DNA of 64,000 bases. Origin: Isurus oxyrinchus (lineage: Eukaryota). A program made the position numbers and the translations under genes. The number at the start of each line of letters is the position of its first letter. Position 1 is the stretch's first letter. Below the pieces are notes generated by a model. That model was not told the DNA's origin. It was given only the letters and a program-made list of their open reading frames with translations, and ran no database searches. Below, piece by piece: positions 12-46,198 of this stretch. The DNA lies in contig JANJGN010000041.1 of NCBI GenBank assembly GCA_026770705.1, forward strand, positions 5,084,001-5,148,000, in the 5' to 3' direction.

Positions 12-889
12 TGAACCTATTCACGATTGTGATATTGAGGCGCCAGAGGTGCGGTCTCTCCAATTGTGTTACCCGTTACCTGGTGGCCATGGCAGTGGCT
101 GATCTACTGGTCATTATCCTCGACCTGATACTGAGGCATATTCCAATTGTGTTTGATAAGTATTTTATTTTCCTGCAATCAGTCCCAGTGTGTAATATCC
201 ACGCCGTCCTGCTCTATGCAGCCACTGACTGTTCTGTGTGGTTCACCGTCACTTTTACCTTGGATCGATTTGTGGCCATTTGTTGCCCGAAACTGAAAAC
301 TAAATATTGCAATGAAAAAACGGCAGCTGTGATTCTGGGAACCGTGATTGCACTGAGCTGTTCAAAGAACATTTTCTGGTATTTTTTACTCACAGGTCAG
401 TACTGGCTGGTAAACTTCCCCTGGTTTTGTGGTTACACAAAAGAGGTTCTGTTCTCTCCTGTCTGGGTGACAATCGAGTTCACCCATCACATTCTAACAC
501 CTTGTGTCCCATTTGTACTGATCCTGCTCATCAATATTTTGACAGTCGAGTATATTTTAGTGACCAGCATGACCCGCAGGAGCCTTCGGTCTCATAGGAG
601 AGGGGAGAGCCCCAGAGACCCAGAGATGGACAATCGAAAGAAATCGATCATGTTACTGTTTTATATTTCAGCCAATTTCATTGTTTTATGGGCAATGTTA
701 ATGTTTTATTCCATATGGGTTCGAATGTATGATTTTGGCTTTAATTCACTGTATCTACATTTTTTTGTTCTGCAATTGGGTTTCATGCTGCAGCTCCTGA
801 GTTGCTGCACAAACACTTGGATTTATGCTGTGACACAGACTAAGTTTCGGGAGCAGTTTTGGAAAATGTTGAAATATCCCTTCAATTAA
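12..889 (+). CDS. GPR139/GPR142-like class A GPCR, paralog 1: last (major) coding exon; exon 1 lies upstream of the window
   Basis: Pyrimidine tract and AG acceptor (tttccttgcag, 1-11), then an open frame to TAA at 887-889. Seven-TM pattern with MAVADLL (TM2), FTLDRFVAICCP (TM3), ILTPCVPF (TM5) and LLSCCTNTWIY (TM7). The phase-1 junction inside TM1 (G|TG AAC = V-N) matches that of paralog 2. Confidence 0.9.
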
Positions 890-1959
890 ATTTTTAATTA
901 GTTCAATGATTGGAAGAGCTGAATATCTGACATTTCTAGGACATAATTTCACAATTCCAGCACTGCATAACGGTCTGTCACTGGGTGGAATGAATCAATG
1001 CAAACTTCCTGAATTTTAACATTGAACTTAACGTTTTCAGTGGATAGGGGTGGAAACTGGGGTGGGGCTGTTGGGGTGGAGGGACTGCTTTAAGTTGGAA
1101 TTGAGAAGTCTTAAATTACTAGGAGTTTCCTGAGTTCTCTCAATGAATTTAACATTTCCAGCTGGCACGGGGGAATGGGGGTAGGATGGGGGTGTCTTGT
1201 GCATTCAATGGGTCCGTTTCAATGGAACCGAATCACTCAAAGCTTCCAGTATTTTCTCCTTTCATTGCTTTTGAATTGAGGAAAATTCTTCTCATTGGGA
1301 GAACAAATACACCACGATTTTCCAGAATTAAAGCATTTTCTCTTATTTATAGCTGTGGGGGTGGAGTGGTGGAGGGAGGGGGCGAGGGGAGGCCGTGAAT
1401 GTTACCTCACTGACCAACTACTCCCATCCAATTGGCCGATTGTAAAGCCTATCGTCCCCTCCGCCACACAGGAACGGAAGGTAATAAAGCTCAAGCCATT
1501 TGCACACTTCCATTGCCCACAAGACATGTCCATTATCCTTCTCTCTCGTACTGATTGAACAGAAAACTAAGCCACTGATAGCCTACTTCCAAAATCGCCG
1601 ATGCAACTGTCCACTGTTTCTCATTGATTGGACAGGAATCCTCCATCCAACACGTGATTGGAAGCCAAAATGGAATGCCGGAGTGGAACGTGGTGAGGTC
1701 TTGTCAGAGGAGGACTCGTCGCAGCATACAATTCAAGTAACCAACAACGGCAGTAGGAACACAAACTGAAAGTGAGGTATCAGCAGAAATTAGTGCATGG
1801 CAGCAGCACAGCTCACACTGAATTCTATTGTTTATAAAGGAAGTGGGTATCAATTCATCTGCAGAAAGAGAGCGGCGTTGTAGTGGATTTGGTGTGTGTG
1901 TGTGCGGGGCAAGACGGCACAACTGGACCTCGATCTCCCTAAAAGAAATGCAGATTGAC

Positions 1960-2280
1960 ATACAAAAAGAGGGAGCGAGAGAGAGGCATGTTGCTTAACA
2001 GACAGAAAGACACAGAGACTTTGAAAAAGAGATAGAAAGAATTTGAGTGGTGTGGGGGGGAGAGAAAGAGGCTGATAGAGAGAGAGGTGGAGGCAGAGTG
2101 AGAGATGAACGTACTGGGATGTAGAGGAACAGAAAAACAGAGAGCGGGAAAGAGATAAAGGGAGAAAAAGAGGCTGGAAGAGAACAACAGTGAGAAAGGG
2201 AGAGACGAACAATGAGACAGGGAGAGAGGAAGACATTGAGTAACGGGAGGGGAGGTGAAAAAGAGGTAAGACAGGGATTG
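1960..2280. repeat. GA-rich low-complexity tract
   Basis: Degenerate (GA/GAGA/GAAA)n. It produces the spurious S/L/F-rich minus-strand ORFs. Confidence 0.85.
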
Positions 2281-2337
2281 GGTTAGTCACATCGTGGATG
2301 AGATTTGGGAATTAAGCAGGGGGACATGGAAATTGCA

Positions 2338-2840
2338 GCTGAATGTATTTTAAATAGGGTGAATTCCCATTCACTTAGCACCAATCTGCTGAATGTATTT
2401 TAGCCAGTACGCACTTATCAACACCGTGCTGAATCTATTTTAACCAACAATAAATCCCACTCACATATTATGACCCCGCTGAACGTATTTTAACCAGCAC
2501 TAAATCCCATTAACTTATCAATGATCCGCTGAATATATTTTAACCAGCACTAAATCCATTAATTTGTCAACAATCTGTTGAATGTATGTTAGTCAGCAAT
2601 AAATCCCACTCACACATTACCACTCTGTTGCTTGTATTTTAACCAGCTCTAAATACCATTCACTTATCACCACTTTGCTGAATGCATTTTATCCAGCACG
2701 AAACACCATTCACTAATCAATACCCTGCTGAATGTATTTTAACCAGCAGTAAACCCATTCACTTATGAGCACTCTGCTGTATATATGTTAGCCAACACTA
2801 AATCCACTCAATTATCAACACCCTGCTGAATCTATTCTAA
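2338..2840. repeat. ~50-bp minisatellite, about 10 copies
   Basis: Unit GCTGAATGTATTTTAACCAGCACTAAATCCCATTCACTTATCAACACTCT recurs at ~2338, 2388, 2428, 2478, 2528, 2577, 2627, 2677, 2727, 2776 and 2825. Confidence 0.92.
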
Positions 2841-3499
2841 AAGGCACAAAATCACATGCCTGGTCGGGGAATCTTATACATTCGTATGTGTTAAAATTAG
2901 AGAATTAGCTTACTATTGATATCCTGAATATATATGTCAACTTATGGTGATGACTTAAAATTACTGCACAAACACGTTAATTTATGCAGTGAGTCACTCC
3001 AAAATCAGACAGCAGTTAAAGTCTGTGGTGAAGCATCCATTCCGAACATCATTCAGAGAATGAGCCAATCCGGGAGCACCACTGCTGTCTGACAGGCAGC
3101 ACAGCCAATCTGGAGCTTCTCCCAGGGACTCACACAACCACTACCCAAAACCACCATCTCCACAGCCACTCAACTAATTCACACACCCCGTTATTAAAAG
3201 CCACCTCATCCAATTGGTATGATTGACCAGGTGAATCACGATTCACTGAGCCTATTTGGTATTTTGTTGACATTCGCGTGACAAAATCCTCGAAATCCGC
3301 CTGGTGAATGACACCTTACGTGAACCAAACAGGGAGCATCATTATGTGGCTAAAAAACGCAACAGCCAATCTGGGACTTCATTTGGTAACTCAGGGCCTT
3401 CTTCCCCAATCAGGCAGCTGCTTTTGGTGCTTTACGGTCGGGGCAGTTGGTCAGCAAGTTTTAGATAGAGGCTAACATACTTACGGCACTCCTGGCTGC

Positions 3500-6050
3500 C
3501 TGGATGACCATATATGCAGAATGTGGCATCTGTTTAACGCGCTTGAGAACCGGGTTTTGGAGCTCAACCATCGGCTGGATGCAGTGGTGCACTCCGGTGC
3601 GCGAGACTCATATAGACAGCATGTTTCTTTTTTTTCACACAGTCACCGCACAGCTTAAGGAAGTGCAGTCAGACAAGGAATGGGTTACCCAAGTCAGAGG
3701 AAGGGGTGCTAGCAGTTAGTCAGGAAAGCCACCGAGTGTGTCTCATTTAAAAACAGTTTCTTTCCCTGTGTTGGAAAATGGTGACCGTGTTTATTCCCAT
3801 TGAGAATGCAGCCAGAGCCCAGCTACACAAGCTGGGAGTGGAGAAAGTGAGGGAGAACAATCGTGTCGGAGACCCCAAATTGTGGGTGAGTCAGGCGTAT
3901 CAGCGGCCAAAGGCATAACTCCAGAATGGTGTGTTGCATCCCTGGAGCCAGGGTCAAGACTGTCATTTTACTGCTCCAAGGAATTCTGAATGGGGAGGGC
4001 GAGCAGTCAAATGACATGGTTCACATTCGTCCTAAATGACTTATGCACAAAGCGGGATGAGGACCAAGAATTTAGGGAGCAAGGTAGCAGCTTGAAAAGC
4101 AGGGCATCAAAGATTCTAATTTCTGGATTAATTCCGATGCCACGTCCTACTGTGAAGAAAAATAGGTGGATAGATTAAATTCATGTGTGGCTGATGATGT
4201 GGTGCAGGAGGACTACTGAAAGTTTTTCGGTCATTGGGTGTGTTTCTTGTAGAGGTGGGAGGTGAGGAAGTCCAAGATATTTTACCTCAACCGGAAATGC
4301 ATCAAAATTATTTATTGGTAGGGCTGGGGTTGGGGGTGGTGACGTGGTGCGGGCGCTGGAGAGTGGAGGTTTGCTGGTGCTGTTGTTGCGGGTTTAAACA
4401 AATTTGGCAATGCGATAGGATATGTAATGGATGTTACGTAGGATGTGATTTATAGGCAAGTTTAGAAGAAAAACTACGTCAGCCAGGAAGACAGCGATTA
4501 TATAGTCAAGTTAAGGCACAAAGGAGAATGGCAGGGATGGATGGCACTTATTTTCATCCAAAGAGTCATGTGAGTCGGGCAGAATAATTGACAGTGTTGA
4601 TTAACACAGAGATCTGGTGAAGGAAAGGGCAGGGCTGGCAGCTCAAAATTCTGTTTATGGAATCCGCAGTCGAGACGAGGCTGCCGTTGGCGGGAGGGCG
4701 GTCGGAGTAGAGGAGTTGGTTCACAACATTAATCAATGAGTCAATTGCTGCAAAGAGGAAAGATGATACCTTAGTGAGTTCCTCAGATGAGGCCGTATGG
4801 TTTGAGCTGAAATTCAAAAAGGGGCCAATCAATTTGCCACACCGAAACAGCCAGATTGATAGAAATGCTGACAAAATCAGAGAAGTGGAATAATAACAGG
4901 GTAAAAATAGTAGCTTTCCACTTTCCCCTATCTACGAGGATATACAAAGTCGTGATGGCTTAGAGGGGACAGAATTTTCAAAATGTACCGAGGGAAGATT
5001 TTTAATGTGAAGAATATGAATCCCACAAGAAAGGCAGTAGTGCTGGGCTTAGCATTTGGGAACAAAACTGGGCTATTGGTAGAAGTTTAAAAGGGGGAGA
5101 ATTTCTCTGATTTTGTCCATAATTCAGTAAGTGTTAAGGTAGTTATTGGGAAGGATAAAATGCACCTGATATAAAGCTGCTGAATTGGGAAAGCATGTTT
5201 TTAATAATTTAGTATACGATCCTGTCAAAGTGAACTGGAAGCATCCATCTGTCCAAAAACCTGCATCAGAGCAGAGGGAAGTTTGCAAAAAATGAAATAT
5301 TGAGTGCTGGGGCAAACATTTCCAGAAAGCCCTGGATTTCGAGGAATGCACTGGATTGAATGAGGGAAAACAGGAAGCTCCTCGAGGAAGCTGATGGCTC
5401 AAAAAAGCATGAGTCCTTCAAAATATGTAAATTGTGTATAGTTACTTAAATAAGGAAAGTAGGAGATCGAAGAGGGAGCATTGGAAAACACTGGCAGGTT
5501 AAATAAAGTAAAGCAAAAAGGCTTTTCGTAAGTATTTTACGGTCAGAGGATCACCAGAGAAAGAGCAGCTCGCATTTGGGACAAAATTAGTGTGTGGATT
5601 TATGAGATTGCGATGTTATTTCAAAAGTGCACCTTGCATCTGTATTTAGTGTAGAGAAGAGCGATGTAGGTATAGAAATCAGCGACGGGGACTGTGATGC
5701 ACTTGAACAATTTAGGATTGAGAGGGAGGAGATATTAGATGTTTTATCTGACTTTGAAGTAGATAACTCGCCAGACCTAGATGCGATGATTTCCAGGCTG
5801 CTCTGCAAGGCAAGGAAGGAGATTGAAGTGTCCCTGACATTAATTTCAAAATCCAGCCTCGTCACAGGAGAATCTCAGTTGACTTAAGGTCAGCGAATGT
5901 ATTATCATTATTCAAATTAGGTGCCAAAAATCCAGGCAGCATTAAATTAGAGGATCTAAAATCAGTGTTAGGGAAACTTTCGGAAAAAAAAAATATCTGG
6001 GAGAGGACTGACCTCTGCTTGGAGAGGCAGGGATTAATCAGCGATAGTCA
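3500..6050 (+). mobile_element. Decayed CR1-type LINE (ORF1 esterase-like region plus ORF2 endonuclease to start of RT)
   Basis: Broken translations VCCIPGARVK, LNDL and ILISGLIPMPR (CR1 ORF1 SGNH-like), and HLASVFSVE...EILDVLSDFEVDNSPDLDAMISRLLCKARKEI (CR1 ORF2 motif KSPGPDGIHPRVL). Many stops and frameshifts. Confidence 0.85.
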
Positions 6051-6649
6051 GCATTATTAACCTGGATTGCCATTGACTTTCCCGCAGTTAATCAAAACAT
6101 TCTGGTTCTTTTAATCTGTGCAGGGTCTCTTGCGAAATTTTGATCCAGTTGGTACACTTACTTTCCAAGTATGTGGTCCAGCAGTGCCTCATTTCTCCTG
6201 GAACTGGAAACGCACTGCAGTAGAAATGTTTCCTGAGCACAGTTTAGGAACTGCTATTATCAGTATCTACATTCGACTAATTGAACTCCCTCGTTCTAAG
6301 TATTCTACAATGCTTGCACTTCAGTGTAATTTCCTTGCCAATTCGAGATTGTGCCCTTGCCACTTTGGTCTATACTATTTCTCCTGCACTGCAACATCAT
6401 ACAAGTCTCGACGATGCCACCGGAAGTCACCTAATAAGAATTTGCAACATCGCAACAGCTAAATGAATGAAGCCAAAATCAAAAAAATGGCTGGAATAAG
6501 TCCCCAGATTCCCATGGTGTGACCTGAGATAACATGTCAACATTGCTGATGGAGTTAGTGGTAGTTTTACAAAATGAAAACAGAAACCCCAAGAGGAGTT
6601 TGCTAAATTATGAAGCTTCCTTTGAGACGTGGAGGCCTAAGGTCTGCAC

Positions 6650-9600
6650 CAGAAGAAGTGGAAGTCCATTGCCTGGCTGCCCAAAAGTGCAGAATCGATG
6701 AACATGCGCTGATCTCAAAAAACTGAATGCAATGCACAAACAAACAGAAGAAAGGAGAACGGATGATAGATGTATCCATTTTAGGGGAAATCCACTTTTT
6801 TTTTTAGAAGAAGCACCTGAGTAAAGCAGAGTCCATACACCTGGCCAAATCAATACAGATTGAGCAAAATACAAAATGAAGCTGGAGGTAAGTATTAAAA
6901 TAGGCAGGACTCTCAGGACTTAGCACATCAAGGCGGCAGCTGGAGGAAAGCTGCAGCAAAAACTGGCAGCATTCCACCAGGAGGCCCAGCTGAAGTGAAC
7001 GTAAGTTTTATTTATACAATTAATGCAATTAATTTAAACGACATGCTGAGTAGAGAAGAACCTGAAGCTTTTAATAAAAAAAATGCTCCTTTCATTTGAA
7101 CCCTGGGTTCTTGCTTTAAGAAAAATGAATGCCGGGTTAACAGGCCTAACCTTTTGAATAAAATGGGACGGCCACAGTGCAATACTGCCGAATATTAAAA
7201 AAAAGTGTGGAAATTCACAGCAGGGTTATTGACAGCTGCAGAGTCATCCTTAAGTGGATAAAAATGGATGTGGCACAGACAGCCATAAATGCGCAATGGC
7301 ATTTAAAAAGATTAACTCAGGAAAAGAAAAATAAATTGCCTTGGATACGAAATTCCATCACAGCCACATTTTTGCTTCTGCAAGGCATGAAGGGATAGTT
7401 TTCTTTATTTAAATTATTGGATGATTCAAGTCAAAGCACAATCTCTGGAGTCATCCAGGCCAGCACCAACTTTACCCTCATTTACTGAATTGCATGACCG
7501 GTAATCCCAAGCTAGTACATTGATAATTCCTCAACCACCTTCAATGACAAAATAAATGCCTTTCATGAATCTTTGAAACATCAAGTTGAGGACTCTGTAG
7601 AGCCTTACAAGATGCATACAAATCCTGTAGCAAATTAACAATCGGCGAAATTACGTCCTTGAACACGTTATATGAGGCAACATAAAGGTCCAGAACTTCC
7701 TGGAAATCCCTGGAACCTGTTTTTATGGGGGGCCTGTGAGATGATTGCTAATTACTTTCCCTATAAAATACCGATAATTGCTTCCAGCATTGTGCAAGCA
7801 GCTGGTAGTGAGCAGCAGGGAAATTAATAAAACTAGCGACTTGTCACGTGAAGGAGAAAAAGCATTAAATAAAAAGCAATCGCTTGTTTCAAAGCTGAAC
7901 AGGATGAATTGAAGTGTGAGATTCAGGCTGGATATGTAGATTTGAAAATGCATCGCAAAACGCAGTCTTCAAAGAGCCAGAATTTTCGAGGCCTGAACAA
8001 ACAGAAGTTAGAGATAAAACAAATGGGGCAGGGTGGGAATTAGCACCCTCAAATGCACAGTTGGCAAATCAAACCGTGAGTTAGAAAATCTCATCCACAT
8101 GTACAGCCAAGCAAAACAATAGGGAATAAAAAGATTCAAATAAGCAGGAAAATTGAAAGGCTCTCTGCACAATGAACCTATATAGGTCAAAAAATCATCA
8201 AAAAACAAGATGTTGAATATTATTTGAGAATAAAGCTGCATTGGAACTATCAGCAGTATCAAAGGAACAGACTGAAGCTCAGGGTGAGTTGGTGTTAGTT
8301 GGCCAAGGAATTAATTAGTCGGAAAACAGCTGATTGTCCTGCTTCTTCAAAAAGCACAAATAAGTACATTATTCTTCAGCAGCATGAATACATTAAAATC
8401 TCTCCTACACAGCAGAACGGAAGAAGAGCACAGTAAAATCGAGGAGAACTTGCTGAATAAAAGGAAAGTGAAGATGAAGCAATTGAAGCTTCACAGCGCG
8501 AAAGAAAGCCTGGAGAAAAAAATTAACACATTACAGATGTCCCTGAGGCCAAATCATTTTCCTATGCAAAATGATGAAGAGTAGCAGATTAATTTCATCT
8601 GACTCTGAACAAAATGGAAACGCAATTTGCAGGGAAGACTCCAGAATTTTGAAAATTATAGGAATAAGCCTAATCTGCCAGAAAAAAAGGACAGAAGAGC
8701 TGAAGAAACAGCTGACATTGAAAGGAAAAGTTAAAGCCCTTTCCAAAAATGCAAGCAGGTGATGAAGTTATGAACAAAACATTTGGAGAACTGTAGGAAT
8801 TTACCTGCCAACGGAGACAGGCCTGGCCAACAGTGAAACCCACATGAAGGACAAAGAGAAATCACTGCTGCAGGCAGAGGACGGAGGGGGGCACTGGCAA
8901 ACTAGCAGGGTCACTGCATTGGAAGCCCAGAGACCCAGGCTACTGCTCTGGAAGCATGGGCGCCACATCCACCATGGCGGCTGGAGGAATTAGAATTCAG
9001 CTCTTAAACCTGTAATTGCAAGCTAGCCCCAGTGATGGGCACCATGAAACTATCATCGATTATCATCAAATCCCATCACTTTACCAATGTACGTTAATTG
9101 AATGTCTGCCTTGCTGAACTGTTTTGACCGAAAAGTGGCTCCAGGAACCCAGCAATGCAGCCGGCTATAAACTGCGCTCAGCAGTCACCTAGTGAGTTCA
9201 GTTCAAAAACAAAATATATGGGCAAACAAATGCCGGTTTTCCAGCTACGCCCACAACCTTTGGAAGAATAAGGAAGAAGAAAGATTGAAAAAAGATTGTA
9301 ATTTGCGAATCTGATACTGAAGCTCAAGAGACAAAAATGCAAAATCACTGGATTCCTCAAACGGACTGAGGGTTGTTGAAAGGTGACCTGGCTGAAATGG
9401 AGATCAAGAAGCGGGAACATCAAAGAAATGGTGAGCAATTCCAAGGAGAAGTCAAAGTTCTCACAGAATAGCGGGAGGATTTTCATCTACAAAAAGGCCA
9501 AGTAAACTTAAAGAATGTGAATGTGCAGCACGGCACTCATGAAAGCGACGCTGCTGAGCGAAAAATGGTCAGTGTAGAGAACTAACTTTCATGTACAGAG

Positions 9601-10550: not shown

Positions 10551-10845
10551 TGTAATGTAAAGGTTTTCAGGACAGTAAGGGTTAATGTCGCTTTGGGGAA
10601 TAGTATCGCGACTGGTCTGATGCATAGGGTTACATGATTGTAGACGTAGAAGCCAAGTATGAAGCAACTAGTAAAGTGGCTGCACCCGTGTATGCGGAAC
10701 ATCGGATATGTATATCATTAAAGCTTAACAATGAATAGTTCATGTTTAATCATTGCAAGTCGGGAGACCTCTCAGTGGGAGATCAAAGCAGCATTTTCAA
10801 CAATTCCCAAATTAGGGCAGGAGGCAACACTGACCAATCAAACAT
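10551..10845. mobile_element. Possible solo LTR
   Basis: Begins TGTAATG...GTAAGGGTTAATGT, has an AT-rich polyA-signal-like stretch and ends near ...AACA. No convincing TSD seen. Confidence 0.3.
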
Positions 10846-11710: not shown

Positions 11711-11754
11711 AGATAGCAAAATGAGTAATAAAGAGTCTATGTGGATAGCTAGTC

Positions 11755-11880
11755 TGCGTGTGTCTGTGTGTCTCTTTGTGTGTTTTGTTCATGCATGTTT
11801 CTGTGTGTGTTTATGTTTCTGTGTGTGTATGTATGCATGTGTCTGTGAGTGTGTGTGTATGTGGGTGTGTGTGTGCGTGC
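11755..11880. repeat. Degenerate (TG)n microsatellite
   Basis: Long interrupted TG run, the source of C/V-rich spurious ORFs. Confidence 0.9.
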
Positions 11881-22900: not shown

Positions 22901-23896
22901 AGGAAATAGAGCTTTTCTCCAGTTTGTATTCATACTTTGTTTTATAATGATTAACCAAAACATCTGGAAAGGTTATATTTAATTTAATATGACTTGTGGC
23001 TGTTGTGGAAGTGCACACCAGGCCTGAAGAGATCATGGAGAGATAAAGAATGTTCTTGGCTCTTACCTTGCGGTGCTGGTAATGGTGAAAAACCCTGAAT
23101 GTCATCTCTATGGAGCGTGCAATGACACAGATATTCTGTTGAGCTCAACTAAGGGAAAAGGCCAGAAGTTGTAACATGTCCAAGTCAAATCTCCACCGAA
23201 ACCTTTGGATCAAGATGTATAGCTGACTGCTCAGCACTTATGTACAATCATAATTTGTTTTATTGTGGCTGGTTCGTATCATGTTGAGTGGCTGCTCAGT
23301 AGAACAGACCTTTAAACGATCACTCTGCCAACATCTCTGCTTGTCGCACTCCCCTTCCATCCTGCACTCAGACAACATTAGCTCTCCTGCCCCATGTCAC
23401 ACCACCTTACCGTCAATCAGTCACCCATTACAACTCGTCACCCAAACTCCCACGGCACACTAGCACCTGGTAACACTCCCCTTCAAACCATCAACACTAA
23501 TTTCCCCATTCCCAATGATGCCTCATCGCATGCAATTTTCCTCCATCAACCCTGCTACTCTTCTGTCCACACTGCTATTCCAAGGCTGCCTGCCATCAGG
23601 CCTGGATATCCCTATCAACCCATATCTTCTTCGTTACAAATTTCACCTCAATAGCCTCAGCTTCCCCCATCAACATTAGCTCCTCACCTCTAACTTCTCC
23701 AACATCCCTGCTTACCCCATAACCTCCGATTTCCACCCTCAAACCGTCTTTTCTTCTCCAATAACTTCCATTTAATTGTCCTGGCCTTCGAGCATATCAA
23801 CAACCGTCTGGTCAATAAGGTAGAATGATTCCGAAATGTTCAGTAAGTCCTTACGCAACTTGTAAGTTTTGTATTGTACATTTCTCTTTCGCTCAG

Positions 23897-24709
23897 CTAA
23901 CAAAGTGATGATTGTGTCACTTTTGCAGATAGTGTGGTCTCTCCAAATGTGACACTCGGCAGATGCTGACTATGGCTGGTTTTCTTAGCCTGATATTTCG
24001 GCTCTTTCTGATAGTTTTAGGAAAAGAGTTTCGTTTCTTCAACTCCACCCCCGTGCGTAATGCCAACACTATCAGAAACTGACTGTTCTCCCTGGTTCAC
24101 AGTCACTCACACCATTGAAATCTCTGTAGCCATTTTTTAGCAAAATCTGAAGAGTAAGTATGGTGTTGGCGGAACAGCGGCTGAGCTTCGGGTAATAGTG
24201 ACTGTTTTGGTATGTTTAAGGAAAATTTCCCGATATTTTTTGAAAGCCAATGAGTATTGGCTGACGATAAAAGTCCATTCTGTTATGTGACAATAAATGA
24301 CCTGCATTCTCAGTTTTGGAGAAAAATCGAGTTCCTTGATCACATTCTAACGCCGGAGAGGCTATTTGCCCCGCTTCTGCTGTTGAATGGTTTCACTGTC
24401 AGGCACAGGTTAATGACCAGCAGAAATTGCAGGACACTCTGGGTAATCAGAAACATGGAAGATCGAAGGGAACCCAACAATTTGCTTTTGTCCTCTCAAC
24501 CAATTGCATCAAGTTATGGTCAACGTTTATGGTTTACTCATTGTGGTGGCAGATGTTGGATATGTTGTCCAGTTTGATGCATCCAGAAACCTTGCACAAT
24601 GGTTTAATTCATTCTGCAGCTCCTGAGTTGATTCAGAATCATTTGTGTTTGTACTATGACTCAGAATATGTTGCGATTGCATTTGGAGAACGTTCTAGGA
24701 TATGATTAA
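23897..24709 (+). pseudogene. GPR139-like GPCR pseudogene (major exon), closer to paralog 1
   Basis: Acceptor tttctctttcgctcag ends at 23896. Broken translation: ANKVMIV / CGLSKCDTRQMLTMA / TDCSPWFTVTHTIEISVAIF*QNLKSKY / WRKIEFLDHILTP..LLLLNGFTVRHRLMTS / FILQLLS / TQNMLRLHLENVLGYD*. It is collinear with 12-889 but has an in-frame stop, frameshifts and deletions. Confidence 0.85.
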
Positions 24710-30849: not shown

Positions 30850-32200
30850 TCAGTGGACTTAACACAGAAGCTTCCCCACTGAAGCATTCTGAAGTTTCTA
30901 TCCATTTGAGTAATAAGGCGGTATTATTCTTCCAACCAAAATGCATAAACTCACTATTCTCCATATTAAACAACATCTAGCAAATGTTGTCCCATTCACC
31001 TTACTTGTCCATATCCATTTGTAAATATCTTATATCTTCATTACAACTTATTCCCCACCTATTTTGGAATTATCTGTAATTTTAGCTATTGTACATTCTA
31101 TCCCTCAACCAAAGTCATTCATAACGAGTATAAATAGTTGGGCCCTAGGACCGAACCCATTGGAAACCCAGTAATTACAGCTGGTGTTCGGGAAAAAAAG
31201 AACCATTTACCCAGACTCCTTTCTTTCTGTTGGTTAGCCAATCCTCTCTCCAAGCTAATATAATACCCATGACTTCATGTGATGTACCTTGTGAATTAAT
31301 CTTTTGTGCAGCTTCTTTTCAAAGGCCTTCTGCAGTGCAGAAATACAACATCCACAGTATCTCCATTATGCACTTTGTTTGTCACATGTTCCAAAAACTG
31401 TAGCAAATTACCCAAACACGAGTTATTTTCATAAAAAAATGCTGACTCTGTTGGATTTTATTTCGACGTTCCAAATGCCCCGTTAGTAATTCCTTAATAA
31501 CTGTTTCCAACAATTTCTAAACGATAGATATTAAACTGGTTTAGAGTTTCCTAATTTCTGCCTCCCCCAATCCTTCTGAATAAGGTCATTATATTAATAT
31601 TGTTCCAATCCAGTGCAACCTTTTTGGAATCCAGGGAATTTTGGAACGTAATTACCAATGCTTTCACTATTTCTGCTGCCACCTCCTTTACGACCATTGG
31701 ATTTAGGTCAACAGGTCCTGGGGACTTGTCACCCTTTAATCCAAAATGTTTGCTCAGTACGTTTTCTCTAGTTATGGTCATTCTTCTAGGTTCCTGCATC
31801 TCTATACCCTCTGCTCTGCCTGTTACGAGTGGTGTGGCAGTAGTTTCCTCCGCCGTGAAAATTGAGGCAATATATTGAGACTAAACATATAGTGCCTTTT
31901 CTATGTTCCCCACTGTTAACTCTCCAGTCCTACCATCCAACTGACCAACATTCGCGTTTGCTACACTATTTATTTTTATATACTTTTGGAAGAATTTGAT
32001 ATCACTTTTTTAAATTTTGCGCTAGTTTACTTTCATAATTTTCCTTTGTTATTTTTATTAACTCTTTGTTCGTCTTTATAATGTTCCAAATCTTCCTGCT
32101 TGTCACTGACCTTTTCCATTTGGGATGCCTTAATTTTGGATTTTGTGTTGCCTTTAACTTCCTTGCTTAGCCCTGAAAGATTTTTTTCCCACTCTTACCA
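30850..32200 (-). mobile_element. CR1 LINE ORF2 fragment (RT region)
   Basis: Minus ORF 31551-31799 reads GLKGDKSPGPVDLNPMVVKEVAAEIVKALVITFQNSLDSKKVALDWNNINIMTLF, typical of CR1 ORF2. Confidence 0.88.
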
Positions 32201-32714
32201 TCATTCTTCCTCATTGGAACGATTGTTCTCTTTATTTTTGCGATTTGGCCAAGGCATTTTTGATAAGGTATTTGCACACATTTTTGTGACTGAATGTGCT
32301 GTCCAGGTTGGTTATTGTTTTACATAATTAGTCTGATCGTTTTAAACCGAGTAGGGATGAAATGTACCCTTGGCTCCTGCTATGCTGAATCAGTTTTGAT
32401 TTTTTTTCCCCAATGTTTTTCTCTTCCCGGTAAATTAGTGATGCTTTTGTTCCTGGCACGAAGAAATTGTTATCCCTCAAATTGTATTATTTGCTACCAG
32501 AATTGAATGGCAGATACCGAATTCCTGGACGTCATATATGTTCCGAAATTAAGGGGAACTTGTCAGGCGAAATTCCCAGATTTATTTGTGTGCAATATTG
32601 GCATTCATTGTGTTTCTCTCTTTCTGTTTAAATAACAATCACATTTTTTTGCATCACGGTCGCATTTATCAATGATCCGTTAGCGGATATTTGTTGCAAG
32701 AAGCATTTCTACCC

Positions 32715-35750: not shown

Positions 35751-36231
35751 GGAAGTGTCAGTGCTAGAGGAATCCATGGAATGATCTGGGAAGCGTATGA
35801 GTTCCCTCTGGAAGTTTAAATGTCACAGACAAACATCACACATGTGCCCTGTTGGAAGATAAAATTTGTCCCGAAAAACATGACAGTGGTGAACATTTGA
35901 AATTTCCCGCACTACCTCTCCTGACAGTCGAGGCCGATTGAGTTTCCTCGAATCATTTTGAGCTACATTAGTAAAGATTAGATTTCCAACATCCCTCCGT
36001 GGGTCAAGCATTTCCCACCGTGATTATCCACTATGGGATCTACCAGCTGCTCGTTAAAATATAGCCCCTTCAATTGTATTGACCACAAACATCATTCGAA
36101 TGTTCAATGTTTCATTTCGAAACGGTTCCTTTTTGAAACAGAGCGACTGACGTAACCTGTTTGTTCAGTGACTAAAACTAATTGATTTCTTTAGGGGACA
36201 TGAATGCTCTAATGGGGATTGATCTGCTGCT

Positions 36232-36303
36232 TATATAACAGTTTCGCTGAATGTCAAATTTCATGTTTTGCAACAGGCTCGGTGTATCGGTTTCAACGTG
36301 AGT
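36232..36303 (+). promoter_or_regulatory. Candidate TATA box and short non-coding first exon or donor of GPCR paralog 2
   Basis: TATATAA at 36232-36238 and GTGAGT donor at 36298-36303. A strong acceptor (pyrimidine tract, AG at 36961-36962) lies 21 nt before the ATG. Confidence 0.35.
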
Positions 36304-36439
36304 TAGCTCCTCTTACAGTGAATATAATTTGTTGTACTTCATAAGATACGATCCATTTTCAAACCCATACTCGAAGCTGTCATTTTCCGATGTACGTTTA
36401 TGAACATGCTCTCGGACTAACAATATCAATTTCTGTCCT

Positions 36440-36730
36440 TCTTTCGATTCATAGATGAGGGAAATGCAGGCATGGCGAGCATTTATTGCCCATCTTTAAT
36501 TCAACTTGTGAAGTGGGTGGTGAGCTGCTGCAATCTTTGTGGTGTAGTTACATCCACAGTATTATTAGGGGGAAATCCATTAATTTGACAAAGAGACAAT
36601 GAAGGAACGGCGATATTTTCCCGAATCAGGATGATGAGTGGCTTGGAGAGGAACATTCAGCGACAGGCGTCCGCATGACCATGCTGACTTTGTCTTTCTA
36701 AATGCTAGCGGCCATGGGTTTGATTAGTTA
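36440..36730 (-). mobile_element. 3' end fragment of the second CR1/L2-group LINE family
   Basis: GCATTTATTGCCCATC...GGTGGTGAGCTGC, similar to 21640-21700. Confidence 0.65.
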
Positions 36731-36983
36731 ACTGAAGGGCTTCATATTGAGTAAAGGTAACAGCTGTTCTCTGTCCCCTGCCAGGAATGATGTCATGCTA
36801 GTTTTTCCCTGATGCTCTATAATAATTAATGTGACATCTCCTTTCGAAGGTCTTAGATTTTAAAGTGTTTCTCCTGTTTTCCTGAGATAAAACTTAAAGA
36901 AGAAGAGGATTTTTACGTTTCAGCTCACACGTTTATTTCTTCTTGTGCACCCATCTCTGTAGGAAAGACATCTCCTTAAAAAG

Positions 36984-37053
36984 ATGGGTGAACTGATACT
37001 TCACCAGCTAGAAGCGATTTATTATCCTGTTCTCGCGGCTATTGGGGTTCCTG
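36984..37053 (+). CDS. GPR139-like GPCR paralog 2, coding exon 1 (MGELILHQLEAIYYPVLAAIGVP)
   Basis: AAGATGG Kozak context, 23 codons plus 1 nt, then donor GTAAGA at 37054. YYPVLAAIGVP|VN parallels GPR139 YYSLLLCLGLP|AN. The phase-1 join restores the frame of exon 45342-46198. Confidence 0.88.
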
Positions 37054-38164: not shown

Positions 38165-38700
38165 AGGGACATTGGAGCATAGGAAATACGAGTAAGAGTT
38201 GACCATTTGGCCGCACGACGGTGCTCCACTACTCAATTATATCATCGCTTAAATTATGCCTCCACGACATTCCTCGCACTATCTCATATCTTTGGACGCA
38301 TTTACTAATGCGAAATCAGTTCATTGACACATTCAACATACTCAGTGACTGCCAATCCACGGAGGTTGCAGTACATAATTTCGAAAATTTACCCCTCCCT
38401 GAGTGATGAATTCTTCCTAAGACCAGTTCTAAATGCAGACCTCTTATTCTGATATTGCTTTTCAGGGTTTTAGGCACCCCCAACAGGGGAACAATCCAGG
38501 CAAATCTACACCAACGAAATTTATAAGAACGATGGATGCTTCAGTGAGATCAATTTTCATGTGCCAATGCTCCAGAAAGCAGAAGATGAGTCTCGTCAAT
38601 GTCTCCACATAGGACAATCCCAGCGACCTTAATGTAATCCAAGAGGTAATGTGTTGAACATTCCTTGTCGCAGAGCTACAACAGCACCTAATGAAATCCA
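38165..38700 (-). mobile_element. CR1 3' fragment (intronic)
   Basis: GGAGCATAGGAAATACGAGTAAGAGTTGACCATTTGGCC...CTCAATT is a degraded CR1 3' UTR. The minus ORF has LRSLGLSYVE..MKIDLTEA (LGL.SLE.RR.RGDLIE). Confidence 0.7.
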
Positions 38701-39619
38701 CACAAAAGGGGCAAAGTAGATGGTTTACTGGAAGCACGAACATCACCATAAACATTCCACATGAATATTGCAGTTTTGGGTAATCGCTGGCTTGGGGTTA
38801 CAAATTATTCTTGTGCACAAATCAGCTAACGCTGATGGTCCACAGTGCCTCGTGAATGCCCTGTTTTGAGCGGTTTATCAAGGTGAATTGTACGCCATTT
38901 AGCACAATGATTGTCTCACAAAATACAATCGAGAGAAGCCCTGATGTGAAGGCGGAATTTGTCTGAACAAGTACCGTGCGGCGGTTATTCCTATTAATCC
39001 TTTAATGAACAGATGCACCTGTGGTGGGTAGGTTGGTGGACCGGATTTACATAGAGTTTTGCACCTGCGTTGTTCCCTGATCACCTGCCAAAGACCCAGT
39101 CTAGCAGTTACATTTATGGACTGGCCAGCTCGAAAATTAATGGCTCAACCGATCCTCTCTTGCTCACAGACATCGAGGTCCGCATTGTGAAGCATTTTTC
39201 TTTCCCTGTCATTCCCCAAAAGATCATCGATCCATCCACTGAGGGGAAAGGGAGGTGGTCAGCAGGAAGGGATATTCTTTGCCCATGTGTTTCATGATGT
39301 CATGAGATTTCATTTAGGTACCACGTGCTCTCAAGGATATGAAAAGTGATGTACACTGAAAGTGTTGCAAAATGGTATTTAGGAATCAGTAATACAATTG
39401 AGCAATACCGAGAAATTCAAATGATATTTCACCGTTTAGATCAGATAATTTCACTCAGATGTTTGCTGATGATTCATATGAACTTTAAAAGCTTTAAGAG
39501 GAATTACTCAGATAAGGATAAACATCTTGAATCATTCAATCTACGGAATGATTGCAAATCAAACTGTCTGCTTTGTCTTGGAATAAGTCAATATTGTTGA
39601 ATTATATTAGAGCGTAAAT

Positions 39620-41050
39620 CATCCAGACAGGTGTAGCATATCCCATCATACTCCTGATTTGACTATTTAAATGGAGGAAAGGTTTTGGAGACTCAGGGGG
39701 TGCGTTGCTCACAACAGCATTCTCAGATTCTGACCTGCCCTTCTAGTCACAGTTTCTTGTCAATGGTTTGTCCAAGTATGGTGAAATTGGATTTTTAAGC
39801 GATGGTGATGTCATTAAAACTCAAGGACATTTTGATGGATACTCCTTCGGTTCAGTTGGTCATTGCCTTTCAATTTTGTGGGATGCAAATTACCTGTCGA
39901 ATTTCAGCATAAGTATGGCTATTGCCCAGGTATGGATGGACATGGGCATGGATGTTATTAGCATAGGTTCTGTCGCGAATGGTGCTGAACTTTGAACAAT
40001 TGTCAGCGGACACAACCTTCTCCCAGTAGCCCACACCCTACCCACCACACCAAACCTCTTTCTGTGTTTTAAATGAAAATAATTTCATTGATGCAGCAGC
40101 TTAAGATGGCTGTGTTCAGGGCACAGCCCTCAGGCTCTCGTCAAGTTATGTCATGGGAAACAAAGAATAAAGAAAAAAATCCTTTTCACTTGATATGACT
40201 TCAAGCACTGGGGACTTTGCTCCTTTTTCTTATTGACTAAAATTCTGATAGCCCTCCTTGACACCATAGTGTGATAGCTGTTGTCTTGATATAAAACACT
40301 GCTCCTCTCTCCTCACCTTATGAGTACAGCATTTGAACATGTTTCAACCAAGGTTGAACCGAGAGTTGGAGTTCACACGAAGCAAGAAGTGAGCGTCAGT
40401 GAGCAGTTTACTGTGAGTATCTGGCGATTGAAAGCATTGTCCATGATACTTTTCATCACTTTCATCATGATGAGGTGGAGGCAGACGGTGCTGTAATTAG
40501 ATTGCTTGGATTTGGCGTGTGTTTTTGTGGATAGGCATATCTGTGAAAATGCTGACATTTTTGCATCGATGCCAGTATTTTAGATGCACCATAGGAGCTT
40601 CGATAAAGTAGTCTTATTCAGGAGCAGTGATCTCCCATACTATTGGCATTGTCTAAAATTACCCTTAGCCTCTGCATCATCCAGATCCTTCTGTCATTCC
40701 TTAAATTCGAGTGCTGAGAATCACATTGTATTACGCCTGGCATCTGTGTTGCTTTTTATCCAATGGAGGAGGCTGGGATGGTTCATCCACCCGTCACTTC
40801 AGGGTGAATGTGACTGCAAATTCTTCAGCCATGTATATGCACTGGTGCACAGTGCTACACAGTCATTTCCGATGGGGATATTGGTGGTGATCCGTCCACC
40901 AGTGAGTTGCAGAATTTTCCACCGCCATTCAAGGCGACTGTGACTTGACTTCAGAGCTGAGCTATCGTTACTTGGTAGGGCGATCAATGAGCCCTGCTTT
41001 TCTGATGCTGAATACGCTGTTTTGCCTGCAAGTAGCCTTGTCTTCAAATT
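39620..41050 (-). mobile_element. Second CR1/L2-group LINE family fragment (intronic)
   Basis: Minus ORF 40373-40558 reads KSKQSNYSTVCLHLIMMKVMKSIM, a degraded KS.P.NYRPISLLSI.SKVME. Similar to 22100-22900. Confidence 0.65.
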
Positions 41051-44000
41051 CAACAGGTGAAGCCGTGTTGGTAGGAATGGTCACTGTTGCTGTGGACATA
41101 TGACAGATGTCAGCAAAGTTCCTTCATTTGTGCACTTGACCTCGAAAGCATGGAAGGACAACAGCAGAAGAGGCATGGGAACACTCTTAATTACAAAGTC
41201 CTTTCCATGTCTCGCACCAAGTGGACTTGGAGATGTATCACCATTCCTTGACTGTCACTGGATCAAAAACCTGGAAATCCATCACTCGTAGCATTTTGTC
41301 TGCACCCGCTTCATATGGACTCCAAAGCTAGAAACACCTTATTTTCAAGAAGAATAATTGAAAACAGAAATAAAATTACTAATCTTGTCAATATATCCAA
41401 AGAAAAAAAAAATCCATGATGAACGAGTAATGAAGAGTGATATTCTTTTTGTATTGAAATGACGGCCCTGGCTTTTGCTTTTTTTCGAGCTCAACAAAGA
41501 ATAACTACAATATCCATGTTTAAATATAAATTATTTCGAACAATACTGGTCCCAAACTGAGAATGTATATTTTGAATTCACTCCTGAATATCCAAATCTT
41601 TAACCAAAAAAATTGGCTGAAATTTTCGTCTACATTTCACATCACTCCCCCACCCTCTAAAGGCCCCTCTCCCCATCACCCACCCACCTCAAACATGCCG
41701 AATCTGCACGCAGATCAATGACATGCATCGGCTATAATGATGTCAGTTACATGAACCTCCCCGGTTTCAGATGGAGAACAGTTACAAGTTACTAATTAGC
41801 CACTTATTGAGTTTCTGAACGACACAACCGAATGTTTTCTTGATTCGTGCCTTGCATTTGCCATGGCCCAGACGAGAGAGAAAACATATTTCTGTGCAGC
41901 TACCATCAGAACAGAATCGCGTGGAAGAGAGGTTCTGCGTCCGGGTCCATGATTAAATGCAGCAACAGATGGTGCTGGGGAAGGTGGCAGCGGCTTCAGG
42001 ATTACTTTTCACTTTTCTTGTTTCTTGCCTGAGCTTTCAACAAAAAATATTTTTGGCAAAACCGTTTCTGAGATCAAGTGGTCTTGAGCTTGCAGCCATA
42101 CCGACTTCCTGTTCACAGCATTACACTCTGTCGCAGGATGTTCAGGCTTTCACTGCCGATTGGACGCATACCCTATTGTGCATCACTCATTGCCTCTTCA
42201 CAGTGGCAATTTAATTAATTGTGGAGCTGGAGATGGTCTATGGGAGAGTGTGGAGGGAAAGGGCTAATTTTACATTTCTCCAATCTCACCTGCCTAAAAA
42301 CGTAAAATCCATGCCACTGTCTACTTATTATAATGATTCTGTATGATTTTAAATCACGATTACGTTTTGCACATGCACCGGAGGATCTGTGTCACTTCTC
42401 TAGTGTAACTGCTGCTGACTGTATACTTAATTTGCTAGGTAAATAGTGGATAATCGTTTGGATAGGTCACTATTTAATTAGGTAGATAATTGGGTGCTTC
42501 ATTCCTGCGCAACTTCAATGTTTAATTCGGAAAGAAATCTGGAAATATACTGATAATTTATTGGATAACAGTTTTGATAATGAATTTGTTCAAACATTGG
42601 CTGCTTCATTGTATAATTTTTTTCAATTACTCTATATTTGAACCTGTTTCCTTATTTAAAGTGTGGCCAGTACAGTTTCAAGTGATGATAATTTGGCGAA
42701 CAATCTTTGTATATTTCACAATAGCGCACAGATAATTATGCCTCTCAGTTTAAATGCATGTCATTGTCGGAATATAAATATTCGGTTTGCTCAAATAATA
42801 ATAGGTATTGGGTAAATGAAGGTAAATTTTCGTTTTTGACATTTATTTCAGCTGCAGCTGTGTCAAAATAGCTTCGATTAATAAAGCTTCCACCTTTTCC
42901 AGTTCAACCTACATTCCTAACAGAAACCCAAAATTTAATTTTGATCTATTGCCTAGCGTTTTCAAGGCTGTTTGTGATTACCTTTGACAGCTCCATTAAG
43001 TCCATCAATATTTGATGCTTGCATTCGAGTTAGAGAATTGTGAATTGGGGGCTGCCAACTGGGCTGTGTATGTAATGCAAATAGATACTTGCTTTTTTAT
43101 GTGTGGTCAAACATTGCCAATTTACAATCTGATCCAAAAATGTAAAAAAACTATTTATCTTTATCCGACTATTTTGCATTACTTCATTCAAAGTTCATCT
43201 GAATCATTAACCAACAACATATTGAAATAACATGATCCAATATGTTAATTAACCACCCGTTTATAGACCATCAATGCATTGTTATTTCCCTACATTCAAG
43301 TTTGCGAAAAATCTACGCTCAGTCTGCACCATGTTGCATAGCCTGGAAAACAGTTGATAATTGAAATAACTCTCTATCTACTCATCCCATTGTTTTGCGC
43401 ATGTGCATTATCCATTCATTAATCTGTGCCTTCCAAATCTGACCGCGGATTTCGGTTGGAAAGCTATTCAGCACCCTTGAAGGAGCCATGACATCCTCTC
43501 CTATAACAGCGCCAGCAGAACTAAAAACAAAATTTCGGCAGCAAGCCGATTACCCACTTTCGATAATAATTCAAGCTAGAGTTATTTAATTTGATTTTAA
43601 ATGCCGAAAATAATCTAGCAAACGTGTGCATCAAGTTATTACATATCTAGCAGCTACAAATTAGTTCAGAAATATTCACTTAGAAAATATAATCTTCAAA
43701 ATTCAAATGGACATTCACTATCTAAAGAACAGAAAGCATAATGCAACCGTGATTATCTGAGGCTCACATCAATTTCGCTTAACTTACATAGATGATTGGG
43801 TTTCATCGGTAATCAGTATAAATGTCTGAAGTTAATCTTGTGGAAAATAATGCAGCATTGAATAACGGCGTTAATTCTCGAAAAATGTTCCTGCATTTTG
43901 AAAAAAAATATGCATTTTAACAAATAATGCTAAGATTCATGTGTTTTATGAACCTGGCCAATCTGAAATGAAATAAGCTGTAGAGGATGTTAATTTAAAC

Positions 44001-44259
44001 ATGGGTGTGATAGGTGTAATGTCTCTTTCGTCAGTTTATCGACAATTCGTAATTTCACTTTTCTGAACATATATTAGTTTAAAGATTCAAATTGATTTCC
44101 CCATCACCTTCAATCTTTATGACGATCTTTCGCACTTGATGCCCAGCAGAAATCAATTTTCAGCTTCATATTTAAAATCACTTCACACGGATGCTGCGCT
44201 TGAGATGCCCTTTCTGCCCTTTTGGCAAAAAAGTGAATGGTTTTGCAGCCGATCAATTA

Positions 44260-45110
44260 ATGGGAACTCTGTCCTGTCTACTAGGAAGTAAAACGCTAGT
44301 TATGACCTCAGTACAATCACATCATCGAATTGGTCATTAACTTTGCTTTGCAAGAAATGTGCCCCTATGGCCAATAAACATTGCCCACTCAATCTGATAG
44401 CAATGTCACCGTTCCCACTCCGCCATTAAATTGCCCTATTGATCAGGACTGACTCCACCCATTCTGCATAGCAATGTTGCTTCACACCTTCTGCAATGAA
44501 TTAGCGATGCATTCACCTGAAATAATGCTGCACAATGCCCAGCCAGAATATCAATCTTACATTACTCATTCTGACTTAAAACACATGACTGATCAGCTCT
44601 CATTCATGAATAAAACTTCTCTCTGTGAACCTGCATAGGAATGTCACTTTGTACTGATTGTCATTGTACCGCCACCGTGATAACTGCAGTGTAAACTTGC
44701 ATTCAGCCTTGTCTATGCTGTCTTTTATGTAGCTCAGTGACCATTTTCTGGTCGTATGTTTTTGCCATTCAATCTTTCATCCTCTCAAGCATTCAGAGTA
44801 TGCTCGTGCCACTGGACAATATTTTACCTTCAAGCTGGATGTCCTGTAGCACAGTAATGCTTCCCAGTATTTATCACATCTGTAGACCACCCATATGCAT
44901 TGCAGCAATACCTCTTCCAGAGTATAAGTCAACTTGGCACAGATACTATTTTGCGCATTAATTTCCCATTTCACATTGTACCAACACACATGAATTGCCA
45001 CTTTACACCTCCCATTTACCTTCTATTATTCACGATGCCCAGCCATTTGTTTGCTTTCAAATTTTCCAGGTCACATTCGCCCTCAGTAATCTCAATCATT
45101 ACTAAACAAT
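44260..45110 (-). mobile_element. Old CR1 ORF2 fragment (intronic)
   Basis: Minus translation LLQCIWVVYR..WEALL resembles the CR1 endonuclease GV.YRPP segment. Confidence 0.5.
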
Positions 45111-45341
45111 AGTCGCCTAGTTTACGTTGAATATGGTCATTTCAAATTACGAATTATCAACTGAGGTTTTCCTTCCCTATCTACTTTGATTCGGTCCAGT
45201 TTAAATTTAGAACATGCTCGCCTCGGAATGTAGACTGTGCAGATTTGGGTTGAAAGCACAATCCTTTGCTGCAACAGGAACAAAATTAGTAATGTTCATT
45301 TGTGTCGTCTATCTCTTGCTCTCTTTATCCCTCTCTTACAG

Positions 45342-46198
45342 TTAATCTTGTTGCGATTGTGATTCTTTCCCGAGGAAACTGTGGCCTTTCCAAATGTATT
45401 AGCCACTATATGATCGCCATGGCCGTGGCAGATCTCCTGGTTGTTTGTGCTGAAGTCATACTGAAAAATACGCTGGATATTTATTTCCCTGTTTTATTCT
45501 TGACCACGAGCACGGTGTGCCCTCTAACTGTGATTTTGACTTACGTAGTCATATCAGCCTCTGTCTGGTTAACAGTGGTGTTCACCTTCGATCGTTTTGT
45601 GGTCATATGTTGTAAGAAGCTGCGAAAAAATTATTGCACAGGGACAACAGCGGTAGTTGTCATATCAGTGGTGAGTGTGTTGAGTTGTTTGATAAACATT
45701 CCCTGGTACTTTGCGTTTGAAACTGCATATATAATGGAAAATGTAAATCGTGGTTGTGTCCTAACACAGAATTTTTTCATTTCTGCTGAATGGGCCGCAT
45801 TTGACTTGTTTACCATTATCTTGACGCCATGTATTCCATTTATCCTAATTTTGTTGCTAAATGTTTTGACGGCTAGACATATTTTGGTGGCCAGTAAAGT
45901 TCGCAGATGTCTCCGCGTTTGCAACAAGGATTCTGAAATAGAAAGCCGAAGAACGTCCATTATTTTACTCTTCAGTATAACCGGGAGCTTTATATTGCTC
46001 TGGACAACTCCGGTTATATATATTATCTCTTTGCATGTAACAGTCACATCGAATTCTGGCGCAAATGCACTTCAGTCAGTTGGATCCATGCTTGGGATCC
46101 TCAGTTGCTGCACAAATACATTCATTTATGTGCTGACACAGGCTAAGTTTAGGAAGGAGCTGAAGAACGGAATGCAGTATCTTGTGAAATTGGGATAA
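45342..46198 (+). CDS. GPR139-like GPCR paralog 2, coding exon 2 (spliced protein 308 aa)
   Basis: Acceptor ctctctttatccctctcttacag ends at 45341, with an open frame to TAA at 46196-46198. Motifs: CGLSKC, MAVADLL, FTFDRFVVICC, ILTPCIPF, ILSCCTNTFIY. The 70 + 857 nt give 927 nt, or 309 codons including the stop. Confidence 0.92.

Follow-up and report, generated by a model that had tools for sequence, protein, structure and literature searches.

GPR139 and GPR142 are the receptors whose solved structures best match the family described here. Activation of GPR139 by tryptophan or phenylalanine (Trp/Phe) needs its residues F109, H187, W241, and N271 (PMC5430874), and orphan receptor sets of bony fish have been named GPR210 (Rinne et al., 2019; PMC6504862). 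As to shark olfaction, 20–62 olfactory receptor genes have been counted in 10 cartilaginous fishes (PMC10869828), and the large noses of these animals have been explained by sensitivity rather than breadth (PMC10869828; PMC10116579). The locus studied is a stretch of 64,000 nucleotides from Isurus oxyrinchus (the window; contig C41, positions 5084001–5148000 of a 4.98 Gb genome in 5,558 contigs), and it was analyzed within 264 kb of surrounding sequence. It carries two intact genes, gene 1 and gene 2, for class A (rhodopsin-like) G protein-coupled receptors (GPCRs), which belong to a very large family present in sharks, a ray, and a chimaera. A first-pass annotation, made from the sequence alone, had read them, together with a pseudogene, as a tandem birth-and-death cluster of GPR139-like orphans and as a candidate chemoreceptor repertoire. 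On balance we favor the view that the family, as its sequences suggest, is a many-ligand, sparsely expressed chemoreceptor repertoire, most likely in olfactory sensory neurons.

Receptor Class and Relationship to GPR139

Both intact genes match the Pfam model 7tm_1 (51.6 and 70.2 bits, cut-off 30.5), as do all 20 family members compared, in which the DR of the DRY-type motif is invariant, and the predicted model of gene 1 has seven helices and helix 8 (pLDDT 68.9). None of the 20 members matched the Pfam models of OR, V1R, T2R, or V2R at E up to 0.01, the only models found being 7tm_1, Srx, and one DUF; TAARs, which have no Pfam model of their own, were absent from the 6 PDB matches. An identity as OR, V1R/ORA, T2R, or V2R was rejected on these profiles, and one as TAAR on the PDB matches. 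The best PDB match by sequence is GPR139 (E 1.4e-8), and by fold a Foldseek search with the gene 1 model returns GPR139 structures first, barely ahead of peptide receptors. Shark GPR139 has its splice acceptor at the identical phase-1 site in the first transmembrane helix (TM1), and the proline of NPxxY is missing in GPR139/GPR142 and in the family alike. Judged by the best PDB matches and the common intron site, the family belongs to a GPR139/142-related group in the wide sense.

It had been proposed that automated annotation simply labels these receptors GPR139, and this is what the databases hold: a protein search for relatives gave 1,691 matches among 2,198 candidates, and among the 120 matches listed 117 are named from sharks (116 labelled GPR139) and 3 are unnamed. 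A GPR139 motif, in contrast to the thousands of family loci, has a single exact match in the genome (on contig C15), and the protein encoded there is 94% identical to shark, 93% to ray, and 85% to human GPR139, a result that assigns the genome to the elasmobranchs, whereas identity between family and GPR139 is ~20–23%. Since a true GPR139 exists separately, the family is not its ortholog. In a careful tree of 27 rows, rooted at the midpoint, with unnamed outgroups and 14 chondrichthyan family rows, GPR139 and GPR142 form one clade (100/99) and the chondrichthyan family another (93/90), which is joined by a long-branch salamander row (96/91) and then by other bony-vertebrate orphans (100/98); this rooting does not place GPR139/142 as sister group of the family. 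Orthology with GPR139 was rejected on identity (~22%), on the Trp/Phe site, which is not kept, and on a constraint joining both in one clade (p-AU 7e-26).

A profile of 20 members matches 130 clusters (50% identity) at E up to 1e-30. Among 20 of 150 listed clusters that were looked up, 9 are chondrichthyan (ray and chimaera included), 4 come from bony vertebrates, and 7 are without readable species; the bony-vertebrate relatives are from salamanders, coelacanth, silverside, and anchovy. By these comparisons the closest relatives are a small number of orphans from bony vertebrates, annotated as “probable GPR139”, which are 28–31% identical to the family, stand nearest to it in the tree, and were seen as few small clusters only. 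They are probably the GPR210 sets of Rinne et al. (PMC6504862). The salamander orphan (P0345, P0394) changes slowly, one 90% cluster spanning three genera, and has a long branch beside the shark family; it is a candidate for the ancestral function of the family. Nematode Srw/Srx receptors offer a fainter likeness, 7 of the 20 members matching Pfam Srx weakly (best E 1.5e-6), and, as regards invertebrate expansions like the FMRFamide or sex-peptide receptors, the nearest Atlas clusters beyond the family’s own are FMRFamide-receptor-like. Members of this peptide-receptor group have been recruited for chemosensing in invertebrates. The shark family differs from these nematode and invertebrate expansions as an independent vertebrate expansion.

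Family Size and Duplication

Exact degenerate motifs match the genome at 1,974 places for TM7 (control 0), 2,066 for TM3 (control 1), and 2,625 for a broader TM3 pattern (control 2). Tried on 24 intact genes, some of which had been picked by related motifs, the broader pattern recovers 23. These exact motifs give whole-genome counts; protein searches of the genome scored just 133 of 7,837 and 131 of 8,391 first-look candidates. Intactness was sampled in 40 matches, drawn for each of two motifs from the first 100 entries at steps of about five and all on the large contigs C2–C29; inspection of their frames found 18 with a full main exon, 1 ending just after TM7, and 21 broken. By hand calculation, 18 of 40 gives a 95% range of ~31–60%, i.e., 800–1,600 intact main exons out of 2,625, an estimate that concerns the main exon alone and that may be inflated by uncollapsed haplotypes. 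Three pairs on different contigs (L011/L012, L015/L020, and L028/L029) are 99.0–99.1% alike. The counts suggest that the genome carries roughly 800–1,600 intact family genes before haplotype discount. An estimate of total loci from the overlap of two motifs (3/20 and 5/20) was dropped as too biased by subfamily. With intact and broken copies mixed among 2,625 TM3 motif places, the idea holds that the family is very large, has expanded within its lineage, and turns over by birth and death, and what was found is the opposite of a few copies with one-to-one orthology: thousands of loci against a single true GPR139. On contig C2, two pairs of TM3-motif places (110275807–110277293 and 110404026–110405497), each 1.4 kb apart and on opposite strands, suggest small inverted duplications.

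The 264 kb around the window contain 5 intact and ~12 broken main exons. Gene 1 is present in seven copies on contig C41 (97–100% protein identity), each with a copy of gene 2 at a distance of 43–45 kb further on, and the copied blocks, flanks included, are 97.9–99.1% identical in DNA. Genes 1 and 2 are 43.6% identical to each other (proteins of exon 2, both open frames of the + strand); because they show a raw synonymous difference at 145 of 203 sites and fall in separate subfamilies, that of gene 1 containing members from eight named shark species in a 72-row quick tree, they are not recent tandem copies. Thus, birth and death were rightly recognized in the cluster, whereas a fresh tandem pair is not what genes 1 and 2 represent. 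The recent unit of duplication is a block of at least 45 kb, old subfamilies being mixed and re-copied in large blocks. A gene-2-type downstream neighbor (L072, C41 5163292–5165271) carries its first coding exon twice, in near-identical copies separated by 1.7 kb, with the promoter module described below ahead of the first copy only.

Pocket and Selection

Region boundaries were set manually by class A landmarks. Over 21 members, identity averages 0.68 for the inner helices, 0.42 for the outer helices, and 0.29 for the loops. The first-pass annotation had drawn attention to such a divergence of loops and outer TM halves over a conserved intracellular scaffold; it is seen, but largely generic, as GPR139 and GPR142 compared with each other show the same gradient (0.67, 0.52, and 0.30). 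The scaffold motifs themselves are complete in the two intact genes, whereas the pseudogene retains just CGLSKC and pieces. The telling contrast with GPR139/142, as far as the alignment goes, is a freely varying pocket. Ten positions (E108, F109, H113, W166, W170, H187, W241, R244, D268, and N271) are invariant in 12 GPR139 and 5 GPR142 rows, and nine of them vary widely in 21 family rows (loop-side columns are uncertain at 22% identity): F109 is kept in 1 row, H187 in 7, N271 in 2, and R244 in 0. Within the Trp/Phe site of GPR139/GPR142 (PMC5430874), W241 alone is widely kept (19/21); at positions 109/187/241/271 gene 1 has Y/H/W/F and gene 2 has Y/T/W/S.

Ratios of nonsynonymous to synonymous change (dN/dS) were pooled over pairs, which are non-independent, of 78 intact sequences in five divergence bins. 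The pooled ratio is 0.60 for near-identical copies and declines to 0.33 for the deep splits, and across the bins inner helices give 0.19–0.46 vs. 0.57–1.57 for outer loops; 28 of the 78 sequences differ by >10% from one another. Clade tests employed fixed trees and an omega grid with kappa fixed at 2.5. In the gene-1 clade (24 sequences) loop dN/dS is about 3 (grid range 1.3–6, p 0.007), and inner helices have 0.6 in both the gene-1 and the gene-2 clade (p 0.02). These ratios indicate core helices under purifying selection and a loop dN/dS >1 in one of two subfamilies tested.

Promoter Module

Promoters chosen by exon 1 alone contain TGTTTGTT, TAAYTA, TAATT(G/A) directly ahead of a pyrimidine-purine run, and a TATA box; reading the motifs by eye, we take these for putative forkhead, homeodomain (Lhx2-type), and O/E (Ebf-type) sites. 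Of 12 promoters chosen in this way, 5 have the forkhead-homeodomain pair and 4 have the homeodomain-O/E pair, with none in the next 250 bases upstream, and these counts were reached by 0 of 500 shuffles, the motifs having been defined on the same 12 sequences. A strict core pattern has 39 places in the genome (control 0), and as a held-out check 8 of 9 places fetched lead into a family gene. Leave-one-out scores lie above the 99th percentile of background in 17 of 20 promoters; 11 of the 20 had been selected without the pattern, and 8 of these 11 are among the 17. In the 264 kb, 7 sites score >21, of which 5 do not belong to the training set, and all 7 sit 0.2–0.8 kb ahead of the first exon of a family gene. 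The module of gene 2 (score 26.4, leave-one-out 19.4, background maximum 17.2) lies 0.8 kb ahead of the ATG and is followed by a splice donor and acceptor (Table 1); a sequence TGACGTAA at 36144–36157, just ahead of its forkhead-like site, is presumably CRE-like. That of gene 1 was found 3.1–3.5 kb ahead of the window, together with exon 1. Thus, a conserved putative promoter module is common to divergent subfamilies. In 13 of 20 promoters a homeodomain site stands immediately ahead of an O/E-like site, and adjacent Lhx2 (homeodomain) and Ebf (O/E) sites characterize the enhancers of mouse odorant receptors (PMC5608512).

As a control, 200 kb of a V2R/OlfC cluster were used (C2 230835001–231035000, L154–L173; about seven genes, some broken). 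The O/E-like variant of gene 2 occurs 4 times in the 264 kb (two of these in gene-2-type promoters) vs. 11 times in the V2R region, where it was present at 4 of the 6 V2R 5′ ends found; one end was predicted by the pattern first and then seen as a broken first exon. At these ends (4/6) an element TTTCTTT(G/T)GGG is located ~60 bases ahead of a TATA box. The O/E-like site common to gene 2 and V2R 5′ ends offers modest support for an olfactory reading. Taken by its motifs alone, the promoter evidence leans olfactory rather than immune.

Expression Traces and Literature

A search for sequencing runs returned no run with half of the query words. In run X1 (related species, RNA-like) a 91-base contig of depth 46.8 matches 36963–37053 of the window, acceptor to donor exactly, and several contigs cover exon 2 of gene 2; no exon joint is reported, and one contig extends 149 bases into the intron. 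Run X9, of the same sample label, leaves exon 1 uncovered and has a single 47-base piece within exon 2. Run X1 gives a hint of spliced, run-restricted transcription. A metatranscriptome (run X2), whose short pieces cover intron and exon alike, was not used as expression evidence. The last exon of s100z, a catshark olfactory marker, was identified by its PDB match and is uncovered in X1, X9, X10, and X11; this gap speaks neither for nor against olfactory tissue, because the contigs are presence-only, the records are filtered, and none of the runs is an olfactory positive control. A literature search, which left most subscription journals uncovered, found by its listings no paper on this cartilaginous-fish expansion.

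Organization of the Window

The three same-strand paralogs proposed initially, two intact and one a pseudogene, are all present (Table 1); three further remnants had been missed. The acceptor AG stands at the identical site before each main exon (10–11 in gene 1, 23895–23896 in the pseudogene, 45340–45341 in gene 2), so that the phase-1 intron position in TM1 is indeed shared, and of the intact or near-intact genes sampled at other places in the genome, all 19 have the same site. First exons of genes 1 and 2 were located with a hidden Markov model (HMM) built from 63 of 122 proteins. Splicing in silico joins coding exon 1 of gene 2 (36984–37053) to its main exon in a stop-free product of 308 residues, with 11 residues before the IYYP start of TM1, in agreement with the early estimate, whereas gene 1, whose exon 1 (58 codons) lies 3.1 kb ahead of the window, gives a stop-free model of 350 residues.

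The pseudogene is ~64% identical in DNA to the nearest of the intact relatives sampled, and the 41–43-base repeat of the remnant on the − strand corresponds to the unit encoding the repeated N-terminus of intact genes. In gene-1-type N-termini a 14-residue repeat, which bears an N-x-T glycosylation site, recurs a variable number of times; exon 1 of the gene-2 type has 22–23 codons and no such repeats. The stop of gene 1 (887–889) comes ~6–8 codons earlier than in database relatives, leaving a shorter tail after helix 8. Tandem arrays occupy 2412–2840 (50-base unit, 8.6 copies) and 62688–63080 (51-base unit, 7.7 copies), and frames at 31554–31880 and 52564–53018 resemble fragments of LINE or Penelope-type retroelements.

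Table 1. Receptor genes, remnants, and predicted promoter elements in the window.
Feature	Position	Strand	Evidence
Gene 1 main coding exon (mid-TM1 to stop), intact	12–889	+	Pfam 7tm_1 E 1.2e-13
Remnant of family main exon (TM7 to helix 8)	2958–3044	+	tblastn E 2e-5; nhmmer E 1.2e-13
Pseudogene main exon, gene-1 type, with stops and frameshifts	about 23897–24700	+	nhmmer E 2.5e-79
Heavily decayed 5′ part of family main exon	32435–32704	+	tblastn E 1.5e-4; nhmmer E 3e-10
Predicted gene 2 promoter: forkhead-like TGTTTGTT, homeodomain-like TAATTG, O/E-like pyrimidine-purine run, TATA	36158–36238	+	Module score
Inferred gene 2 5′ UTR intron (GTGAGT donor, TAG acceptor)	36299–36962	+	Sequence; X1 contig starts at 36963
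Gene 2 first coding exon (ATG 36984, 23 codons, phase-1 GT donor)	36963–37053	+	HMM E 5e-7; X1 contig matches both ends
Gene 2 main coding exon, intact	45342–46198	+	Pfam 7tm_1 E 2.5e-19
Decayed gene-1-type first exon	59059–59322	−	Tandem repeat; nhmmer E 1.2e-12

Discussion

Judged from its sequences, the family shows two hallmarks of an olfactory repertoire, a large size under birth and death and a diversified pocket on a conserved core. Like OR, TAAR/TARL, V1R/ORA, V2R/OlfC, and co-opted FPR genes it is large, clustered, and pseudogene-rich, with a variable pocket and putative homeodomain plus O/E-like promoter sites, and it differs from all of these in a coding sequence split by the TM1 intron. 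It is far larger than the 20–62 olfactory receptor genes of the 10 cartilaginous fishes (PMC10869828). The olfactory neurons of catshark, all of them positive for Go and TRPC2, lie in an almost continuous layer, whereas seven probes label 0.45–5.94 cells per mm each, the presumed V2R co-receptor accounting for 5.94 (PMC10116579); by our own sum they reach 12.6 cells per mm together. From these densities we infer that most catshark olfactory neurons are without a known receptor, and that so few cells are labelled per probe in an almost continuous TRPC2-positive layer is one reason why an olfactory role of the family is favored. Forkhead, homeodomain (Lhx2-type), and O/E (Ebf-type) factors would then switch on any one gene in just a few of the microvillous sensory cells. 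The receptors would each bind a different water-borne ligand in the outer pocket, possibly amino acids, small peptides, or metabolites if descent from the GPR139/142 group is a guide, and all might signal via one shared G-protein route, Go or Gq to TRPC2. More tentatively, and with somewhat less than even confidence, we propose that sharks, rays, and chimaeras smell mainly with this family, a further set of olfactory receptors with several hundred to >1,000 genes, which would derive from an orphan related to GPR139 and of which each microvillous neuron would express one.

Several observations weigh against an olfactory role. More than half of the sampled copies are broken or cut short (22/40), and the loop-to-core gradient is equalled by GPR139 vs. 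GPR142. Loops of the gene-2 clade (29 sequences) are without positive selection (dN/dS about 0.8, p 0.44), so that it appears in 1 of 8 tests, that of the gene-1 loops, and is borderline after correction. The names given to the module sites are our presumption, and plain homeodomain and Y3CAR4 matches are weak or shuffle-like, their counts being reached by 25 and 96 of 500 shuffles. None of the three V2R promoters scored has the full module (11.9, 9.3, and 19.0, against the background maximum of 17.2), and the exact O/E-like variant is shared with V2R by the gene-2 type only. Ebf and forkhead factors act also in B cells, gut, and brain. Finally, one catshark study reports no GPCR among the top 50 olfactory genes (PMC11979771).

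The strongest alternative, though we consider it unlikely, is that the receptors are diverse sensors outside the nose, in leukocytes, chemosensory cells of gut or skin, taste buds, or testis and sperm, comparable to the FPR and MRGPR expansions of mammals. The evolutionary signature of selection and pocket fits such sensors equally well, and the presumably CRE-like site just ahead of the gene 2 module might be counted for them. GPR142 acts in gut and islets, and genes of B cells are driven by EBF1 and FOXO1. In catshark, spleen, stomach, testis, and rectal gland express OR genes as well as several V2R genes (PMC11979771), so that receptor-like evolution is no sure guide to the tissue. What speaks for the nose instead is the homeodomain-then-O/E-like order in 13 of 20 promoters, as in olfactory enhancers (PMC5608512), along with the O/E-like element common to V2R promoters.

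Passive amplification is improbable as the main explanation. It would mean that a modest functional family was carried along by segmental duplication in unstable regions, most of its copies redundant or silent and its count inflated by haplotypes, as might be read from the sevenfold gene 1/gene 2 block with its near-identical flanks, the 99.0–99.1% alike pairs on different contigs, the dN/dS of 0.60 among near-identical copies, and the 22 of 40 matches broken or cut short. However, two haplotypes cannot account for seven copies on a single contig, differences of >10% separate 28 of the 78 intact sequences from one another, and dN/dS declines to 0.33 at deep splits. Moreover, 130 clusters at 50% identity match the profile, the family occurs in sharks, a ray, and a chimaera, and promoter modules are kept across subfamilies. 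That the genes are GPR139 paralogs retaining Trp/Phe or neuropeptide sensing in the brain is very improbable and largely refuted, since the best structural match (E 1.4e-8, and by fold) and the identical intron site are outweighed by ~22% identity, a pocket not kept, the rejected common clade (p-AU 7e-26), and the separate true GPR139.

If the family acts elsewhere than in the nose, it would still be an expansion of receptors that matches the odorant receptor repertoires of mammals in scale. If it is olfactory, as we favor, a family about twenty times larger than the known olfactory sets has been hidden under the label GPR139, and this would change the account of how sharks smell. Should sharks, rays, and chimaeras indeed smell mainly with this family, the view that theirs is the smallest olfactory repertoire among vertebrates would be overturned.

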